This document shows positions 1,953 through 64,000 of a DNA stretch of 64,000 bases, piece after piece. Below the pieces are notes generated by a model. The model saw only the letters and a list, made by a program, of their open reading frames with translations. It did no database searches and was not told the origin of the DNA. The DNA is from Escherichia phage KKP 3954, in the sequence record OR067838.1. One strand, written 5' to 3'. A program made the position numbers and the translations under genes. Within the stretch, counting starts at the first letter, position 1; every line of letters starts with the position of its first letter.

Positions 1953-3518
1953 TTAATTCGACAGGTTTTGTGCTGAAGGATCTAAAGCAGAAACAGTATC
2001 AGATGTTCCAGTCCCTGCTGTAGCTAAACCATCTCCTGATCGTGAAGTTTTGTCAGGCATATAGTTATCCATGAATTCAAAGAATTTCTCTTTATTGGCA
2101 ACAATATCGTCAGGGATGCGATATTCAAAACCAATTTTTTCAAGGAACTCGTTAATAACTTCTGGGGTTAAAGGTATTGCACCAGAGGCTACCAACTGTT
2201 GAATAGCTTTAGCATTTACTTCAATATCAGGATCACCCATTTCACCACTGACAAACTTAGGCATATCTTCATCAGAAAGGAAGATATTGTTTAGTCGTAG
2301 TGTTTGAGGGATTAGTTGAGAGTTTATAGCTTCTACAACAATATCTACATCTCGCTCAATAAAATGAGACAATAGTGTTTGTTTGTTGTCAGAAAGCGCA
2401 AAACTTCCTGCATCACCATCACCCATAATCAACACACCCGCACCAAAGCGGTTATAAATATCTAGTTTGCGTTGTTTGATTAGTGCTTGAGTGTCAAACT
2501 GTTTACCCGTGCCATCAACACCTTGGAATACAAGATCGTATTGACGCATCACTGTACCTTCATAAACGTCTGAAGGCAATACCATGTAGGCTTGCTCACC
2601 AGAGTGCAGGTTAGCGATGTTGGCTTGGAGAACTCGAAGAGATTGTGCTTCATCCCCAGCAGGATCTAAAGATGCCCTGTTTAGAATGTCACTTGGAACC
2701 TTAAGAACTGGCATACCGCCTAAATCTTTAGATACCCCAATAACCTCAAATTCCTGAATAAGAGATTTTTCACGCCAGCTACGATATACAGCTAAAAGCG
2801 GACTAACTCCTAGTGGGTTATTCTCTGTAATGTTGCTACCAACAAATAAAACTTTACTGAAAGGAATTTCTTTAATACCCGTTTCTAAAGTTGTATTACC
2901 TGGGGCTAACATTGTATTGGTGATATTCTGGTTAACAGACAAGATAGAACGTCCGTCTGCCGAATATGTAAAAGGTTGAGCCATGTGAAGAGTATCTTGT
3001 GGTCTAAAAGCCAGCTTAGTTAATCGCCAATACCCAAAGTAAGGACTCTTAGGATCTTCATCCAACTCATAAACTTTTTCTGCGAATGCAAACCCGTATT
3101 GCTTATATGTCAAAAGTGATCTAACATATTGACGTAGAGGGGCTTGCATATTACGTAACATATAATCAATAAACTTAGCAGCTTTTCTTGACTTTGCCGA
3201 GCTTACATTGTATTTTATCTTAAAATCAAAGAATGCTCTATCTACAAAGATATACGTAGCATCAAGAGCAGTAGCTACATCAGGGTCTTCACCCATCTCT
3301 TTAAAAGTTCGAATACATTCTGGGAAACGAGTCTCATAAGGCTGCATGAAATTCGTAAATGCTTTGATTGAGTTTAATCCGATCGTTCCTATTTCAGGTG
3401 ACAGGAGTAACGTTTTCTCTTTCTCTGCTTCTTTTGTTGGAGAGAGAGCAGCTTTATTTGCAGCACCTTTGTCCCAGTATTCTGACTTTTTAGTATACGT
3501 TCTTTTTCCTGTTGACAC
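1953..3518 (-). CDS. putative portal protein
   Basis: 521 aa ORF immediately downstream of large terminase; size and position typical of portal; no motif-level proof. Confidence 0.55.
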   Translation of the reverse strand: MSTGKRTYTKKSEYWDKGAANKAALSPTKEAEKEKTLLLSPEIGTIGLNSIKAFTNFMQPYETRFPECIRTFKEMGEDPDVATALDATYIFVDRAFFDFKIKYNVSSAKSRKAAKFIDYMLRNMQAPLRQYVRSLLTYKQYGFAFAEKVYELDEDPKSPYFGYWRLTKLAFRPQDTLHMAQPFTYSADGRSILSVNQNITNTMLAPGNTTLETGIKEIPFSKVLFVGSNITENNPLGVSPLLAVYRSWREKSLIQEFEVIGVSKDLGGMPVLKVPSDILNRASLDPAGDEAQSLRVLQANIANLHSGEQAYMVLPSDVYEGTVMRQYDLVFQGVDGTGKQFDTQALIKQRKLDIYNRFGAGVLIMGDGDAGSFALSDNKQTLLSHFIERDVDIVVEAINSQLIPQTLRLNNIFLSDEDMPKFVSGEMGDPDIEVNAKAIQQLVASGAIPLTPEVINEFLEKIGFEYRIPDDIVANKEKFFEFMDNYMPDKTSRSGDGLATAGTGTSDTVSALDPSAQNLSN

Positions 3519-3619: not shown

Positions 3620-5695
3620 TTATCTTTTACGGACACTATACGGTTGGTGAAATCCGCTGTTCATTCTACTGTATCCTGTAGGAGCATTTGTTGTTGTAGG
3701 AATAGCTACTGCCTTGAAAGTATTCTCTTTTGACAGAGTATTGAAACAAGAAGCAGCAGCATCGGGAATGTCATCTTTAATAGTGGCTGTAGATCTTTCA
3801 CCATTGAAAGATTCCAATTCTTTATAAAAGTGGGTTAGAGTTTCCACATTAGGGAAAGAATCTTCAACAATATAAACAAAACCATTTTGACACGCACTAC
3901 TAAAAGGCATAAAACGCTGAAGCTTTTTCTTGTTGCCTGGCATAGCATCTGGTTTAACAACAAAACCTTCTAGAATAAGTTTCTTTGCAGACTCTGTATA
4001 TTCTATTGTTCCAGCACCAGATGGGTCTTTAGGAAGCACTACTGTAACTTCTGGTCCATCAATCTTACATTGATTAAGAATCAGATTATCCCTTTCCCCA
4101 GGTAGTCTTCTAAACCTTCCGAAAATTTTACTTTTCTCATCCACAGCGTCATAGTCATAGTCACCAAAGATGTAGATATTACCATCCTGATCTTTACCCA
4201 TTTTGACAGACGTTGTATAGTCTGGATAACGATAAGTTTCTGTAGGAACTGAAACAGCTTTATCCCAGGCTCGCATTAGTTTAAGATTGTTAGGAACATC
4301 TTTATAAGATATTTTATGTAACCATTCACGTTGAAAGAAAGATTCTTTCTGAATACGTGCAAACCAACAACCATCCAGAAGCTGTGCTCTTTTAATTGCT
4401 GTTTGTGATTTAAGCTGTGCTAAGTAATTAGGGTTAAGCCTAATCAGTTCTGGGTTATCAAATATTGTCCCACCAATAAATACGAAAGTTTGTGGTTCAA
4501 TAACAACTGTCTCCCCTGTATTAGGGTTTTCCATGAAACAGTTTTCTGGATATTTTTCTTTCAGTTCTTCAGGTGTGTCAGCAAAAACAGGTTCATCGTT
4601 AACAATGATGAAATATTTTTGTTTACCACACATATCTTCTCTAGGATAACCACCCTCATCAAGATAAGGTAACACCCAATTCAAAACCCAACTATCTGCA
4701 TCGGGGTTACATGTGCACAACATGAAGCTTGTTTCTGATTCTGAACGCATACGTCCCAGAAGATAGAGCATTTCATATTGCGTGAAGTGGGTTAACTCGT
4801 CAAAACCTACCATTGAATACTGTATACCCTGATGGTTTGTTTCTGCTGTTACGTTATCATTTTCCAAATGGTCGAATTTGAGGGTTCCACCACCAGTGGC
4901 TTCAAAAATGATATCCATTGTACTTTCTTTTACGTGCGGTTGTAAAGGAAGATACAAACGTTTTGCTTCTGTAAACAGACCACCTGGTTTACGGTGAGCA
5001 GTGGTGTTCTTACGAAAAAGTATTCCACCAAACAAAGGATCTTTGTAGGCGTATTTTAAAGCTTTCAGCAATAGCAGACGAGACTTGCCGCTATTCCCAG
5101 TAACGAAGCAGTGATCGCCACGTCTAAAGACAATATAGCTGCTTGGAGTCTCAAAACAATATTTCTTATCATCTGTTGAAATAACCTCGTGTATTTTTAA
5201 GTAAGTGCTCTTTTTACCAGGTATGTTAAAAGGAACACGTTTACCGAATGGATTTTCTACATAACCTTGAAGGGGTTTTCCTATTTGCTGTAATGCAATA
5301 AGATCTCCTACAAGAATCTCGAAATGTTTCTTTGATTTCTTTTTCTTATAGAATACAAAACGGTGTTCCATACTAAGTTCTTGGAACAATCCTACACCAT
5401 TTGTTATTCTGTATAGGTTATCTCCATTTAAATCGTATTCTACAAAATAAGGTGTTACCAATTCTAAACGCTTATTCTTAGGATTGTATTGGTAAATATC
5501 CTCTCCTGAATATTCACTAATCTGTCTCCAACCATCTTTTGTAAGATATTCCGTTTCAGCAGAAACACATCCAGCGGCACCACCATAAATCATAACTTCT
5601 GGCATTAAATCCATTGCAAGAGTCTGTTTACCTGGTTGAGCCTTTACTTCAATATCTACTCCAGCTAAACTACCTGCTGCCTTTTTCTTTGCCAC
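3620..5695 (-). CDS. terL: terminase large subunit, intein-containing precursor
   Basis: 691 aa; Walker A split as YGGAAG / SGKS around an insert; Walker B-like VGFDELTHF; LCTCNP coupling motif; C-terminal nuclease-like region. Confidence 0.85.
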   Translation of the reverse strand: MAKKKAAGSLAGVDIEVKAQPGKQTLAMDLMPEVMIYGGAAGCVSAETEYLTKDGWRQISEYSGEDIYQYNPKNKRLELVTPYFVEYDLNGDNLYRITNGVGLFQELSMEHRFVFYKKKKSKKHFEILVGDLIALQQIGKPLQGYVENPFGKRVPFNIPGKKSTYLKIHEVISTDDKKYCFETPSSYIVFRRGDHCFVTGNSGKSRLLLLKALKYAYKDPLFGGILFRKNTTAHRKPGGLFTEAKRLYLPLQPHVKESTMDIIFEATGGGTLKFDHLENDNVTAETNHQGIQYSMVGFDELTHFTQYEMLYLLGRMRSESETSFMLCTCNPDADSWVLNWVLPYLDEGGYPREDMCGKQKYFIIVNDEPVFADTPEELKEKYPENCFMENPNTGETVVIEPQTFVFIGGTIFDNPELIRLNPNYLAQLKSQTAIKRAQLLDGCWFARIQKESFFQREWLHKISYKDVPNNLKLMRAWDKAVSVPTETYRYPDYTTSVKMGKDQDGNIYIFGDYDYDAVDEKSKIFGRFRRLPGERDNLILNQCKIDGPEVTVVLPKDPSGAGTIEYTESAKKLILEGFVVKPDAMPGNKKKLQRFMPFSSACQNGFVYIVEDSFPNVETLTHFYKELESFNGERSTATIKDDIPDAAASCFNTLSKENTFKAVAIPTTTNAPTGYSRMNSGFHQPYSVRKR
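5093..5569 (-). other. mini-intein (Hint domain) inserted in the terminase P-loop
   Basis: Residues 43-201: starts Cys (CVSAETEYLTKDGW), ends FVTGN followed by Ser; removal gives canonical GAAGSGKS; about 159 aa, too small for a homing endonuclease domain. Confidence 0.7.
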
Positions 5696-6531: not shown

Positions 6532-6693
6532 TTTTAACTACAAAATTGCGCATATTTTATCCTCCTCATATCTGATCTTATCACAAAAGGATATACAATT
6601 GCAAGCATTAAAAATAAAAAAGCCCCTAACCTTTCGGAGAGGGGTGTTAAAAATAACAAGGAGGAGGGCCAAAGCCCCAAGAGAGGAGAGGGA

Positions 6694-25796: not shown

Positions 25797-28037
25797 TTGA
25801 TTCGTTTTGTAACTAAATCTAATGGTAAGACAGAGGAGTTTAACCCAGAAAAACTTCGCAAGTGGTCTGAATTTGCAGCAGGTAAACTAAACTGGTCTGA
25901 AATTGAATTAGAAGCTGTGAAGCGGTGTTATGACGGTGTGTCTACACGTGATCTGCATAAAGCAATGATTGCAGCGTGTATTGACAAGAAAACACAAGCT
26001 TACAGTGATATGGCAGGAAGACTTCTTCTAGGTATGATTTACAAACAGGCTCATGGGGGATACCACAGTATCCCTTCACTGAATACCTTTTATCATGATA
26101 TGGTAGAACGTGGACACTGGGCTAAAATGGATTATACTGATGAAGAGATCAAAGAAATCGGTAAGATTGTAAAGCATAATAAAAATCTAACTTATGGTTA
26201 TTCTGTTTTACGTCAGATGGTAGATAAATATCTTATTCGAGATGCAGTAAACGATGTGGTGCATGAGTCTCCACAGTTTCTTTTCATTGGTATCGCAATG
26301 AAGGTTATGGAGATCCAACCAAAAGAACGCCGTATAGAAGATATTAAAAAACTTTATACTTATGTTAGCGATCTTAAGATTAATCTGCCATCGCCGTATC
26401 TGACAACTCTACGAACTCCAATCAAAGGAAGTGCGTCTTGTTGTTTATTCCGTGCAGATGATACGGCAGAGTCTTTAGCCATTGCTAATTACTTAGCTCA
26501 TGAGTATACATTGAATAACGCAGGTATTGGTGTTAATCTTCAAACTCGTGCCACAGGTCAAGGTGTTAAGAATAATCGTATTATTCACGGTGGTCTTCTT
26601 CCGTATCTGAAATGGATGGAAGATAGTGTTGGAGCTTCAAAGCAAGCAAGCCGTGGAGGTAGTGCTACAGTTACCTTTACCATACTTGAACCAGACTTCG
26701 ACGATCTGATTCGACTGAAGAATCCAACAACACCTATAGATAAACGAGTGGATAAACTAGATTATTCTATTGTTGTTAACCGTTCGTTCTTGCGTCGAGC
26801 AGCAAAAAACGAAGACTGGATGTTAGTTAGTTGTGATGATGCTCCTGAACTTTATGAAGCTTTATATAAAAGTGAAGAAGAGTTTGATGCAGTTTATGAC
26901 AAAGTAAGTCGTCGTCGCATTAAGAAAAAATTTGTTAAGGCTCGTGATCTTCTGACAGAGATTATTGTTCAACGTGCAGAAACAGGACGTATTTACATGT
27001 TCTTTGCTGACAACGTTAACAACCATACACCTTTCTTGGATACGGTGTATCAATCAAACCTGTGTCAAGAGATCTTCTTGCCAACTAAAGCTTTCCACAG
27101 TATGCCGGATCTCTTTACTGGTGAGAATACAGAAGATCAAGAATTGGCTTTATGCTTCTTATCTTCTATTGTTGCTGGTCGTGTATTACCTGAAGAATAT
27201 GAGGATGTTGCATACTACACTGTATTGACAATTGACAACGTTATTGAAACAATGGATTATCCATTTAAACATAACGAAATAACTGCTAAAGCACGTAGAT
27301 CTATTGGTGTAGGTATTACAAACTTAGCGCATTACTTGGCAAGTAATTTTGTAAATTATTCAGATGCTTATGCTAAAAAATTAATGCATGAACTTGCAGA
27401 ACGTCATTACTTTTGGTTGGCAAAAGCCTCTCTGCGTCTGGCTAAGGAAAAAGGTAATGCGGAATGGATCGATAAGACAAAATGGCCTCAAGGTTGGCTA
27501 CCAATTGACACCTATGCTAAAACAGTAGATAGTATCGGTAATTTTGATCTTAAAATGGACTGGGAAGGCTTACGTGCTGAAATCATTGAACAAGGTGGTA
27601 TCCGTAACAGTGTATTGGCTGCTATTGCACCTAATGAGTCCAGCAGTTTGGTAAGCAATACTACTAACTCTCTGTATCCTGTTCGTGATACCATTATGTA
27701 TAAACAAAGTCAGAAAGGTAGTGTATTATTTATTGTTCCAGACTACGAAAAACTGAAAATGTTCTACCAATCTGCCTGGGATACTCCGGCTAAAGACCTT
27801 GCAGAAATGTATGGTATCTTTACCAAGTTTACTGACCAAGGAATTTCTTGTGATTCTTGGCTAGATTATTCTAAATTGGTAGGTGGACGTTTATCCGTGA
27901 AAGCTGAGATGCAGTTTATTTTGAATTTTGCTAGACTGGGTGGCAAATCATTGTATTACCTTAATAGTAGAACAAAATCAGCAGACTCTTTAGCACAAGA
28001 AGATTCTGATGGTGGTTGTGAAGCTTGCAAGATGTGA
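25797..28037 (+). CDS. nrdA: ribonucleotide reductase class Ia alpha subunit
   Basis: 746 aa; TTG start after GGAGGAG; N-terminal ATP-cone VTKSNGKTEEFNPEKL; active-site SNLCQEI; C-terminal CEACKM. Confidence 0.85.
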   Translation: MIRFVTKSNGKTEEFNPEKLRKWSEFAAGKLNWSEIELEAVKRCYDGVSTRDLHKAMIAACIDKKTQAYSDMAGRLLLGMIYKQAHGGYHSIPSLNTFYHDMVERGHWAKMDYTDEEIKEIGKIVKHNKNLTYGYSVLRQMVDKYLIRDAVNDVVHESPQFLFIGIAMKVMEIQPKERRIEDIKKLYTYVSDLKINLPSPYLTTLRTPIKGSASCCLFRADDTAESLAIANYLAHEYTLNNAGIGVNLQTRATGQGVKNNRIIHGGLLPYLKWMEDSVGASKQASRGGSATVTFTILEPDFDDLIRLKNPTTPIDKRVDKLDYSIVVNRSFLRRAAKNEDWMLVSCDDAPELYEALYKSEEEFDAVYDKVSRRRIKKKFVKARDLLTEIIVQRAETGRIYMFFADNVNNHTPFLDTVYQSNLCQEIFLPTKAFHSMPDLFTGENTEDQELALCFLSSIVAGRVLPEEYEDVAYYTVLTIDNVIETMDYPFKHNEITAKARRSIGVGITNLAHYLASNFVNYSDAYAKKLMHELAERHYFWLAKASLRLAKEKGNAEWIDKTKWPQGWLPIDTYAKTVDSIGNFDLKMDWEGLRAEIIEQGGIRNSVLAAIAPNESSSLVSNTTNSLYPVRDTIMYKQSQKGSVLFIVPDYEKLKMFYQSAWDTPAKDLAEMYGIFTKFTDQGISCDSWLDYSKLVGGRLSVKAEMQFILNFARLGGKSLYYLNSRTKSADSLAQEDSDGGCEACKM

Positions 28038-48680: not shown

Positions 48681-49130
48681 TCATGATTGAGTTCCTTTTT
48701 GTTTTTCAATAGCTGCACGAATTTCTGCTAAAGGTTCTGCTACCAGATCTTCAACTTCTTGGATTTGTTCATTCATTACGTCACGAACCATTTGAATCCG
48801 CTCTTCAAGGGAAACAGCAAGTTCATCTGCATAAGCCATATTAAGAACGTGGTAGAAATTTTCTTGTGCACTTAAAGCACCAGATAACAAATAATCCTGA
48901 TCTTCCTCTGGTAAAAGCATGTGTTGCTCATATTCAGCAAAAGTGTTTTTGTTAATCTCAAGCAAAGCACCCATCATAACATCATACTGATAATCTTTAT
49001 GACCAGGGTTGTTTAAAATAACATCTTCAAAGATATTAAGAAGAATCTTAGTAACAAAAGCATTGTTTTCGGCACCTTCCATCTGACGGATTACCGTGAT
49101 TACTTCTTTTTCTTTAGCGTTTTGGCTCAT
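48681..49130 (-). CDS. hypothetical protein
   Basis: 149 aa. Confidence 0.55.
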   Translation of the reverse strand: MSQNAKEKEVITVIRQMEGAENNAFVTKILLNIFEDVILNNPGHKDYQYDVMMGALLEINKNTFAEYEQHMLLPEEDQDYLLSGALSAQENFYHVLNMAYADELAVSLEERIQMVRDVMNEQIQEVEDLVAEPLAEIRAAIEKQKGTQS

Positions 49131-62695: not shown

Positions 62696-63079
62696 TTATT
62701 CAATGCAAGCATTATTTACATCTTCAATCCGATCTTTCACCCACTGAAGACGTAACGTGTTGGTATGACACGCCAAGTTTATACACTCTGAAAGGTAATC
62801 CATGCAATCCACATTGAACGGAAGATTGTAGTCCAGCCCTGCACATGTAAATTGTTTCCTCATTTCATATTTCAAACGGTCCAACAAATGATCACGCCAT
62901 TTTCTATCTTCTTCTCTAGGTGTCTCACCAACAAAATCATCTACATAATCTACCAGACAACCACATAAGCCACTCGTTGTGCGATTCATTGCAGGATAGT
63001 TGGCAATCCATGCTTTATAGAAGCGAAGCAATGTTGCACTGCTCAACGGAATACTATTTGTCATCTTTCTCTCCTTCAT
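62696..63079 (-). CDS. paralog family A member 5
   Basis: 127 aa; FYKAWIANY, GLCGCL, NLPFNVD, RLQWVKDRI. Confidence 0.55.
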   Translation of the reverse strand: MKERKMTNSIPLSSATLLRFYKAWIANYPAMNRTTSGLCGCLVDYVDDFVGETPREEDRKWRDHLLDRLKYEMRKQFTCAGLDYNLPFNVDCMDYLSECINLACHTNTLRLQWVKDRIEDVNNACIE

Positions 63080-63398
63080 AATCTTGAATTCTATCTAGCA
63101 CCCATTGTATACGATGTTTGTTTTTATGGCAAATATGTTTTTTATGTTCAAAGGTGTATTCCTCATAACCACCTTCATTAAACGGGAAATTGTAATCCAA
63201 TCCTGCACCAATAAACTGTGATTTCATCTCCTGTTGTAGACGAGGTAACAGTTCATCAGGGTATGTTCCCTCTACATACTTAATCAAACATATGCACAAA
63301 CCACTCGTTGTGTGACCTTCTACCTCACCAGCAAGCCAAGCTTTGTAAAACTTCATTAGACGTAAACTACTTAACGGAACATTTTTACTCTCTTGCAT
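63054..63398 (-). CDS. paralog family A member 6
   Basis: 114 aa; FYKAWLAGE, GLCICL, NFPFNEG, RIQWVLDRI; overlaps member 5 by 26 nt. Confidence 0.55.
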   Translation of the reverse strand: MQESKNVPLSSLRLMKFYKAWLAGEVEGHTTSGLCICLIKYVEGTYPDELLPRLQQEMKSQFIGAGLDYNFPFNEGGYEEYTFEHKKHICHKNKHRIQWVLDRIQDYEGEKDDK

Positions 63399-64000
63399 GA
63401 TAATCTCCTCTCATCGTTAGCTATCTTTCATGGCAATCATCAATCACCAACATCATACGATCAATCTTAGGGAATTACAATCGAATTATCATAGGGGATT
63501 CCTATCAATTATCCCATATATACCGATTATTTTTGACACCCCACTCTTGTATAAAAAGTAACCCAAAATATCTACGGGAAGAGATTATTTCGACACACCC
63601 TGTTTCATGGCAAGCATGGCAAGAATATCTAATAGAATCAATATCATATGGCAAAAATCATGGCGCATACGTAAGAAGTGCTTAACGCGAATTTTCGGGC
63701 CGTCAGGTCCACGCAGCGACAATTCCCAAATATCATGAGAATGAGAATAATTATCATTCGTATTCAATGACTTATGCAAGGCTCATGCCAACATAGCGAC
63801 AAGGTGGCCCACCTGATTATAAATCACACAAACACTTATTTATCAATGGCTTGGCAACTTCATCATATGACGGAACAATGTCAACTGATCCCGCCCATGA
63901 CAAGCAGACTATTATTTATATGAGAATGATTATTATTTAAACGTTTATTAGCATATAAACTAAAATAAATCAAGAATTTTCTGATTTTATTTACGTTTAA
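63399..64000. repeat. non-coding region with CATGGCAA-type repeats
   Basis: About 600 bp without convincing ORF; TCATGGCAATC, tandem CATGGCAAG-CATGGCAAG, TCATGGCGC, CCCATGACAAGC; AT-rich tail to window end. Confidence 0.4.

Follow-up and report, generated by a model that had tools for sequence, protein, structure and literature searches.

A non-coding terminal repeat and leader at the probable right end of a phAPEC8-like phage genome

Positions 63399–64000 of the 64,000-nucleotide window considered here, taken from Escherichia phage KKP 3954 (record OR067838.1), very probably form the non-coding right physical end of a phAPEC8-like (Phapecoctavirus) virion genome, as judged by comparison with relatives. 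Because the end duplications of relatives and the homologous boundaries of phages phi92 and BME3 map to this stretch, we divide it into a unique leader (63399–63682) and a direct terminal repeat (DTR; 63683–64000). The element itself has already been published: Stephanstirmvirinae genomes are described in a 2025 paper as ending in direct terminal repeats, the published repeats of the subfamily are 328–342 bp long, and by homology the stretch belongs among them. Assignment of a terminus accounts for the gene-free tail of the window as a terminal repeat plus an early leader. The resulting annotation is routine but useful: the deposited records of many relatives are circularly permuted or have their repeat features in the wrong place, and the genome is best opened at TGCT/YAAC (the slash marks the cut) and deposited with a repeat of ~329 bp at each end.

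Probable genome end and repeat boundaries

Among 94 matching phage records the best are Phapecoctavirus genomes with 96–98% identity, and ~60 genomes of this phAPEC8-like genus of the Stephanstirmvirinae, each of ~150 kb, show 96–98% identity over the region. We also note that records nearly identical to coliphages (96–97%) carry the host names Campylobacter, Acinetobacter, Pseudomonas and Klebsiella; a number of these assignments seem doubtful and may reflect a contaminant or a propagation host. In the window, small minus-strand genes, closely packed, extend as far as a final start codon at 63398. The nine open reading frames (ORFs) of 30–64 aa found beyond it suffer start loss, gained stops or frameshifts in other genera, and curated relatives have nothing annotated in the matching region; the stretch is non-coding. 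An earlier reading of the same DNA, made from its letters alone (the sequence-only reading), had likewise seen no convincing ORF in the last 600 bp, and the motifs, TTGACA hexamer and AT-rich tail that it listed all lie where it had put them. The tail at 63900–64000 has 18.8% GC, compared with 38.5% across the whole window. Rfam scans, run on the stretch and also on the entire gap of a relative, gave only a sub-threshold match to sR11 (20 bits, where 39 are required; E=0.6–0.7). The gene-free zone continues past position 64000, extending in relatives over ~1.46 kb to the terminator of the next minus-strand operon (4800–6261 in L001, the reverse complement of ESCO25).

Evidence for the terminus comes first from the ends of relatives' records. 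In the Schickermooser record, an exact 329-bp sequence is duplicated at the two ends and corresponds to window positions 63683/4–'64011'; the published length of its terminal repeat is 328 bp (Korf et al. 2019). Exact 328-bp end duplications with the same limits are found in Mt1B1_P17 (France), BI-EHEC (Indonesia) and WPEC1 (Thailand), the four records representing four countries and four laboratories. Positions 63683–64000 are 95–98% identical to the relatives' repeats, and several relatives' records begin or finish precisely 11 bp past the final base of the window.

Support also comes from the phi92 genus. The phi92 record (FR775895.2) annotates 343-bp features DTR-L and DTR-R, the left one falling under the BLAST match to the stretch, and in an alignment of three genus-level lineages the inner boundary of the stretch occupies the identical column to phi92 position 343. 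BME3, of the same genus, has a published 342-bp DTR with termini determined by PhageTerm, and its record ends (a 342-bp duplication) reproduce the phi92 boundaries. The 'DTR-L' feature of the BME3 record (L145, PP239276), at 146957–147298, is itself shifted by ~72 bp from the real duplication (1–342 and 147030–147371). DTR identity between lineages is elsewhere only 58–66%, but the boundary blocks are conserved across genera. At the level of sequence, then, the stretch is homologous to DTRs that were determined experimentally or bioinformatically, with identical boundaries in two genera. The sequence-only reading had offered a genome terminus or packaging site as one of several possibilities; the exact end duplications of four relatives, the homologous boundaries of phi92 and BME3 and the published repeats bear it out, and the comparison with related genome ends that it had proposed is the one that places the 328/329-bp duplications as given above.

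Examination of the boundaries suggests a short motif at the cuts. The block around the inner boundary (63678–63695) is conserved across genera and invariant among close relatives. In Phapecoctavirus the inner boundary reads GTGCT/TAACGCGA and the outer one, situated 11 bp beyond the last base of the window, reads TGCT/CAACA, so that TGCT/TAAC and TGCT/CAAC both fit TGCT/YAAC. The corresponding boundaries of phi92 and BME3 are GGTGCT/TAACGCGA and AGGCT/CAACAAA, which leaves GCT/TAACGCGA (inner) and GCT/CAACA (outer) common to both genera. Over 68 kb, both strands counted, TGCTYAAC has only five occurrences; the boundaries account for two of them, which agree in strand and register. A common sequence at the cleavage positions, as sequence-specific cutting would leave, is thus found at the level of an octamer in the boundaries of two genera, and we put forward TGCT/YAAC as a candidate terminase recognition or cut motif. 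An octamer common to both cuts was not found in the literature searched. If confirmed, it would be a testable terminase recognition site in a therapeutically popular, broad-host-range phage group, and the first defined terminase cut-site motif for that group. A further candidate terminase-binding or bending site is an AT-rich imperfect palindrome lying 12–55 bp inside the outer cut, with 21-nt arms that are 76% complementary and that include the conserved block AATAAATCAAGAA.

By analogy with the T7-type short-DTR phages, replication would generate concatemers with a single repeat copy between genomes, the large terminase would cut sequence-specifically at both repeat boundaries, and DNA synthesis would duplicate the repeat to leave a copy at each end of the packaged genome. 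The terminus-proximal genes face inward from the physical end, and promoters for the host RNA polymerase in the leader and repeat would likely be the earliest to act after injection. We infer this cutting mechanism, the promoter roles and the identity of the protein that would bind the boxes discussed below. The large terminase has 691 aa, with ~200 N-terminal residues ahead of its Terminase_6N match.

Several observations weigh against the terminus assignment or parts of it. The window ends 11 bp before the outer boundary, and the end duplication is seen in relatives' records rather than within the window; fixed ends for the window's own phage are read across from those records and from the literature. 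Some of the records that open at the boundary coordinate may have been re-oriented to a reference, and the O177 phage paper gives no termini method. With respect to the cut itself, records of the PhageTerm type put the inner end 1 nt further in (GCTT/AACGCG). The flanks of the two boundaries (±25 bp) align with a local score of 11, which 64–74% of random pairs reach, and because this wider similarity is not above chance we claim only the octamer (7–8 bp at the cut). As for early transcription from the end, promoter-like sites detected by consensus and weight-matrix scans are not enriched (10, compared with 7.4 ± 2.8 in shuffles), and no promoter is conserved across all the genera compared. The position of the window end exactly 11 bp short of the outer boundary may be a coincidence or may reflect how the source record was opened.

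Could the stretch lack a physical terminus altogether? The duplications would then be assembly overlaps or conventions, packaging would be by the headful, and the stretch would merely be a long intergenic regulatory region. Such an arrangement would fit the many relatives' records that are circularly permuted with the region internal, and also the Pfam match of the terminase, which is to a T4-type N-terminal domain. However, assembler overlaps are usually related in length to the k-mer, rather than having one fixed length of 328 or 342 bp bounded by a conserved octamer. Four laboratories' records share identical 328/329-bp boundaries, and homologous boundaries are present in phi92, with its explicit DTR-L and DTR-R, and in BME3, by PhageTerm. 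Because identical boundaries have been obtained by independent laboratories and methods in two genera, we find the absence of a real terminus scarcely credible, and retain the DTR assignment in what follows. Coordinates of the features are collected in Table 1.

Table 1. Features of the terminal region and related genes in the window (a dot marks features without strand)
Feature	Position	Strand	Details
Direct terminal repeat (DTR)	63683–64000	.	318 of 329 bp; remaining 11 bp (GAGAAnnTGCT) just past window end
Inner boundary octamer, candidate terminase cleavage motif	63679–63686	+	TGCT/TAAC; cut between 63682 and 63683
Unique non-coding leader	63399–63682	-	284 bp, between inner repeat boundary and start codon at 63398; no conserved ORF
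AT-rich imperfect palindrome, candidate terminase-binding or bending site	63956–63999	.	Arms 63956–63976 and 63979–63999
Fur-box-like 7-1-7 inverted repeat, box 1	63742–63756	.	TGAGAAT-A-ATTATCA; differs from TGATAAT-N-ATTATCA at one position
Fur-box-like 7-1-7 inverted repeat, box 2	63921–63935	.	TGAGAAT-G-ATTATTA; two mismatches to consensus
Repeat zone	63429–63654	+	CATGGCAA at 63429, 63606 and 63615; TATGGCAA at 63647
Most conserved leader block, candidate promoter or regulator site	63498–63541	.	ATTCCTATCAATTATCCCATATATACCG-TTATTTTTGACACCC; includes TTGACA
Best-conserved candidate sigma-70 promoter, first gene	63452–63480	-	TTGTAA-17-TATGAT; score 9.4
Candidate promoter, -10 = right half of box 1	63750–63779	-	TTGCAT-18-GATAAT; score 6.9
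First (terminus-proximal) gene of leftward small early-type block	63054–63398	-	114 aa; strong ribosome-binding site
Large terminase subunit, presumed cutter at repeat boundaries	3620–5695	-	Pfam Terminase_6N, E=7.9e-17
Mu-type portal, adjoins large terminase gene	1953–3518	-	Beside 3620–5695

Repeats, promoters and first genes of the leader

The sequence-only reading had been drawn to the stretch by its CATGGCAA-type repeats, for which it proposed an enrichment test. TCATGGCAATC is present at 63428–63438, a tandem pair of CATGGCAAG at 63606–63623 (TRF: period 9, 2.0 copies, 100% match), TCATGGCGC at 63658–63666 and CCCATGACAAGC at 63894–63905; membership of the latter two in the CATGGCAA element is not supported. 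The outcome of the test is divided. Three copies of the exact CATGGCAA 8-mer are observed for 2.3 expected in 64 kb, which is the level of chance. All three, however, fall within 194 bp, and the core TGGCAA is strand-specific in 63399–64000 (five occurrences on the plus strand, none on the minus strand), with the leader forming the densest 300-bp TGGCAA cluster in the entire 64 kb.

The CATGGCAA repeats are a real strand-specific cluster, but they are not a terminus signal. The copies sit in the unique leader, outside the terminal repeat, and they vary among relatives that are 96–98% identical. The Wec lineage has three to four copies of ATCGGCAA, on the same strand, in their place, and phi92, which is cut at a homologous position, has neither element. 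Being outside the repeat, variable in close relatives and replaced or missing in other genera, the repeats do not define the terminus, and the use of them as a terminus cue by the sequence-only reading falls away.

A more specific role would be as the functional core of the stretch, an array bound by a packaging-recognition protein (a small terminase acting at a pac site) or by another phage protein. The strand-specific, locally dense TGGCAA cluster is in keeping with this, as is the position of the array, at most 260 bp from the inner cut, and the three to four co-varying same-strand ATCGGCAA copies of the Wec lineage look like co-evolution with a lineage-specific protein. We nevertheless consider such a role improbable, given the lack of CATGGCAA in phi92, the differences among close relatives and the chance-level count of the 8-mer; lying outside the repeat, the array would also be present at one genome end only. 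On the gene-sense (minus) strand CATGGCAA reads TTGCCA(T), which resembles a -35 hexamer; no more than one or two copies are accompanied by an acceptable -10. The copies are probably lineage-specific leader elements, either promoter-associated through the -35-like TTGCCA or sites of a fast-evolving protein. The related suggestion of a cluster of protein-binding sites may hold for the 7-1-7 boxes described below and for the boundary octamers, but not for the listed repeats as a signal of the terminus.

The composition of the stretch also raised the question of a replication origin, of which it might be all or part. The AT-rich tail is a point in favor, and the gene-free zone of 1.46 kb to which the stretch belongs contains numerous short repeats and, past the window, a T/G-rich low-complexity tract. 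An origin would be expected to show DnaA boxes or iterons beside an AT-rich unwinding element. None of the 26 DnaA-box matches in the window (at most one mismatch) falls in the stretch, and no iteron array was found there, the tandem repeats having two copies only. Turns of GC skew in the window coincide with switches in the direction of transcription and not with the stretch, and the repeat boundaries and boxes suffice to explain the conserved blocks. An origin, which the sequence-only reading had listed among its possibilities, is therefore very unlikely here.

The leader is expected to hold the promoter or promoters and the 5′ untranslated region of the leftward early genes, and early promoters within the stretch are plausible. 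The best minus-strand candidates are at 63480–63452, 63613–63584 and 63846–63816, of which a second lineage, Wec, retains the first alone, with the hexamers TTGTAA and TAAGAT. The -35 of the weakly supported candidate overlapping box 1 (63750–63779) is kept only within Phapecoctavirus proper; its architecture matches that of the box-3 promoter described below. We found no transcript-level data for the subfamily in the literature. The most conserved block of the leader (63498–63541) is shared by five lineages and unique in the window, with its TTGACA at 63534–63539. A 24-bp tandem repeat of 2.1 copies (ATCTTAGGGAATTACAATCGAATT and ATCATAGGGGATTCCTATCAATT, 63464–63513) runs into this block with its second unit, and the Wec lineage shows a comparable duplication.

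Homologues of the first gene are annotated in ESCO25, as Schickermooser_00001 and as phAPEC8_0018. The first gene and the minus-strand gene at 62696–63079, with which it overlaps by 26 bp, are paralogues, both matching phrog_2510 (E~1e-25). All eight terminal genes tested fall in PHROG families of unknown function. We also note a 20-nt imperfect inverted repeat (75% complementary) between 63400–63419 and 63569–63588. This could pair the Shine–Dalgarno region of the first gene (GAGAGGAG) with the upstream CUCUUCCC, a possible means of translational control; the inverted repeat is kept in the Wec188 and PsgM04F lineages and not in Wec179 or phi92.

Fur-box-like inverted repeats in and beside the repeat

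Segments of the stretch and its boundaries that are conserved across genera comprise 63498–63541, the inner boundary, 63726–63775, 63920–63939, 63964–63976 and the outer boundary. Two of them hold copies of ATGAGAATRATTATYATT, the 7-1-7 inverted repeats listed as boxes 1 and 2 in Table 1, which resemble the binding site of the host regulator Fur. The 19-mer of box 1, GAGAATGAGAATAATTATC at 63737, agrees with the Fur consensus at 16 of 19 positions, and box 1 is the best match in the 64-kb window. Box 2 is identical at 14 of 15 positions to the core of the Escherichia coli fhuA operator, CGAGAATGATTATTA; the block containing it (63920–63939) is conserved across genera and invariant in close relatives, and at the homologous place, inside its DTR, phi92 has the perfect consensus TGATAATGATTATCA. 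A third copy, box 3 (TGATAATGGTTATCA, L001 5997), lies ~590 bp past the window end. Boxes 1, 2 and 3 are conserved in position in Wec188, Wec179 and PsgM04F; phi92 keeps both DTR boxes and, where box 3 would lie, has TAAGAATGATTATCA.

Fur-like sites with at most two mismatches number five in the window, compared with 0.97 expected, and with local composition as the null the DTR should contain 0.014 sites where two are observed (P<2e-4). One of the window sites, at 48988, lies inside an ORF and was set aside, as was a match to TTTTTAACACCCC at 6641, which is a terminator stem. The phage boxes have 1–2 mismatches to the 15-mer consensus and 3–4 to the 19-mer, within the range of genuine operators on both measures: six operator regions of strain K-12 (fepA-fes, fepD-entS, fepB-entC, fhuA, cirA and fiu) have 1–3 and 3–6, respectively. 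On the minus strand, and in Phapecoctavirus proper only, the -10 hexamer of TTGCAT-18-GATAAT falls within box 1; box 2 has no conserved promoter. Within the genus, the boxes and the boundary show 0–1 variable sites against a background of ~8%, but with seven sequences this constraint is too weak to count. A scan of viral contigs for the ATGAGAATRATTATYATT pattern returned mostly chance AT-rich matches and is uninformative.

We interpret the conserved 7-1-7 inverted repeats as putative sites of protein binding, which could be Fur-like operators or could serve a protein of the phage. The literature searched contains no report of such boxes in and beside the repeat, for which the resemblance in sequence is strong, nor of Fur boxes in virulent phages or their termini more generally. 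Taken literally, the resemblance would make the stretch mainly a regulator-binding zone in which the boxes are operators for the Fur protein of E. coli and the earliest transcription, or concatemer processing, responds to iron. This is compatible with a terminus and competes with it only over the role of the conserved internal elements. It would explain why the phage boxes match the consensus as well as the six K-12 regions do, why box 2 so closely resembles the fhuA core and phi92 has the perfect TGATAATGATTATCA in its DTR, why sites exceed expectation in both window and DTR, and why box positions are conserved in four lineages. The placement of box 3 over the -10 of a conserved TTGCAT-18-GATAAT promoter is the classic layout for a repressor. 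The phage also encodes a class I ribonucleotide reductase, the large subunit of which lies at 25797–28037 on the plus strand, and enzymes of this class are typically iron-dependent.

On the other hand, the half-site is constantly TGAGAAT, with G for the consensus T, in the Stephanstirmvirinae and in the non-coding box of phage rV5, a pattern that would fit just as well a dimeric regulator encoded by the phage, or the small terminase. No promoter conserved across genera surrounds boxes 1 and 2, and the literature on Fur boxes in virulent phages yielded nothing. We therefore hold it possible, though doubtful, that the boxes make the stretch chiefly an iron-responsive zone, and are similarly tentative about the broader proposition that the Stephanstirmvirinae terminal repeat and its adjoining zone, perhaps together with the rV5 box, carry at least three conserved operators for the host Fur protein. 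If this were true, a strictly lytic phage would tie its very first transcription to the iron status of the host; alternatively, the coupling could be to genome-end processing or to a Fur-controlled non-coding transcript just past the window, and numerous phage copies might titrate Fur. Confirmation would add a novel type of connection between lytic infection and the iron status of the host.

The region past the window end bears on box 3. The promoter whose -10 it covers is on the plus strand, and its -35 (ATTGCATA) is invariant from Phapecoctavirus to phi92. On its 3′ side lie a highly conserved block of ~130 nt and then a bidirectional terminator (L001 5970–6262, ~570–860 bp past the window end). 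A 17–32-aa ORF behind a strong ribosome-binding site near box 3 is not conserved, and the region downstream could be a Fur-controlled non-coding transcript. A structured RNA was also considered there and is not supported, the covariation term being -0.76 with most columns invariant. Much of the 1.46-kb zone is filled by a T/G-rich low-complexity tract of ~300–500 bp (L001 5700–5960; TTGTTGT-type, A/C-rich on the gene-sense strand). On the far side, the gene at L001 6262–6681, a homologue of phAPEC8_0017, is 90–93% identical in protein sequence between Stephanstirmvirinae and rV5-like Vequintavirinae (L139 3501–3920 in rV5), whereas according to one paper phAPEC8 and rV5 have only ~18% of their proteins in common. 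This disparity suggests recent exchange or very strong constraint. A locus search anchored on the protein of this gene returned three loci, none containing the region.

Comparison with known systems

The closest parallels are the DTRs of other Stephanstirmvirinae. Over 63399–64000 the stretch is 96.5% identical to Schickermooser and ~58% identical, with conserved blocks, to phi92. It shares with them a position beside the first leftward early genes, the inner and outer boundaries and the internal 7-1-7 boxes. It differs in that the window stops 11 bp ahead of the outer boundary; in phi92, the first five genes and the CATGGCAA copies are missing and the leader is different.

Packaging of the T7/T3/SP6 type starts from concatemers with short exact terminal repeats and involves site-specific ends and duplication of the repeat. 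Judged from its relatives, the stretch resembles these systems in having a short (10^2-bp scale), exact, non-permuted repeat with early genes at one end transcribed inward, and site-specific ends would imply sequence-specific terminase cutting and repeat duplication. Unlike T7, the phage of the window is a 150-kb myovirus, and its large terminase matches a T4-type N-terminal domain and is unrelated in sequence to that of T7. To our knowledge, a common octamer at both boundaries is not a feature of T7 and, in contrast to the T7 type, we know of no phage RNA polymerase promoter at the junction in the window phage.

Phage rV5 (Vequintavirinae) has a 2.6-kb 'non-coding' box (Kropinski et al. 2013). 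Like the zone described here, it is a large gene-free region beside a homologue, ~92% identical, of the flanking gene (phAPEC8_0017 and rV5 ORF164), and it has elements of the TGAGAAT-N-NTTATCA type. Its flanking genes are convergent, however, it has no overall sequence similarity to the stretch, and an end duplication, looked for in one rV5-like record (bov11CS3), was not seen; that record is uninformative on the cut-site motif.

Finally, the boxes can be set beside the Fur operators of E. coli (19-bp GATAATGATAATCATTATC; 7-1-7 TGATAAT-N-ATTATCA; fhuA, fiu and fepB-entC). The Fur boxes known from phages belong to moron genes carried by temperate phages, for example sitABCD of lambdoid phages. 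The present boxes are part of the terminal repeat of a phage that is virulent, rather than of an iron-uptake gene, and keep a G in the half-site (TGAGAAT). In other respects the likeness is close: their match to the consensus is as good as that of the bacterial operators or better, they have the same inverted-repeat symmetry, box 2 shares GAGAATGATTATTA with fhuA, and box 3 lies over a -10 hexamer.

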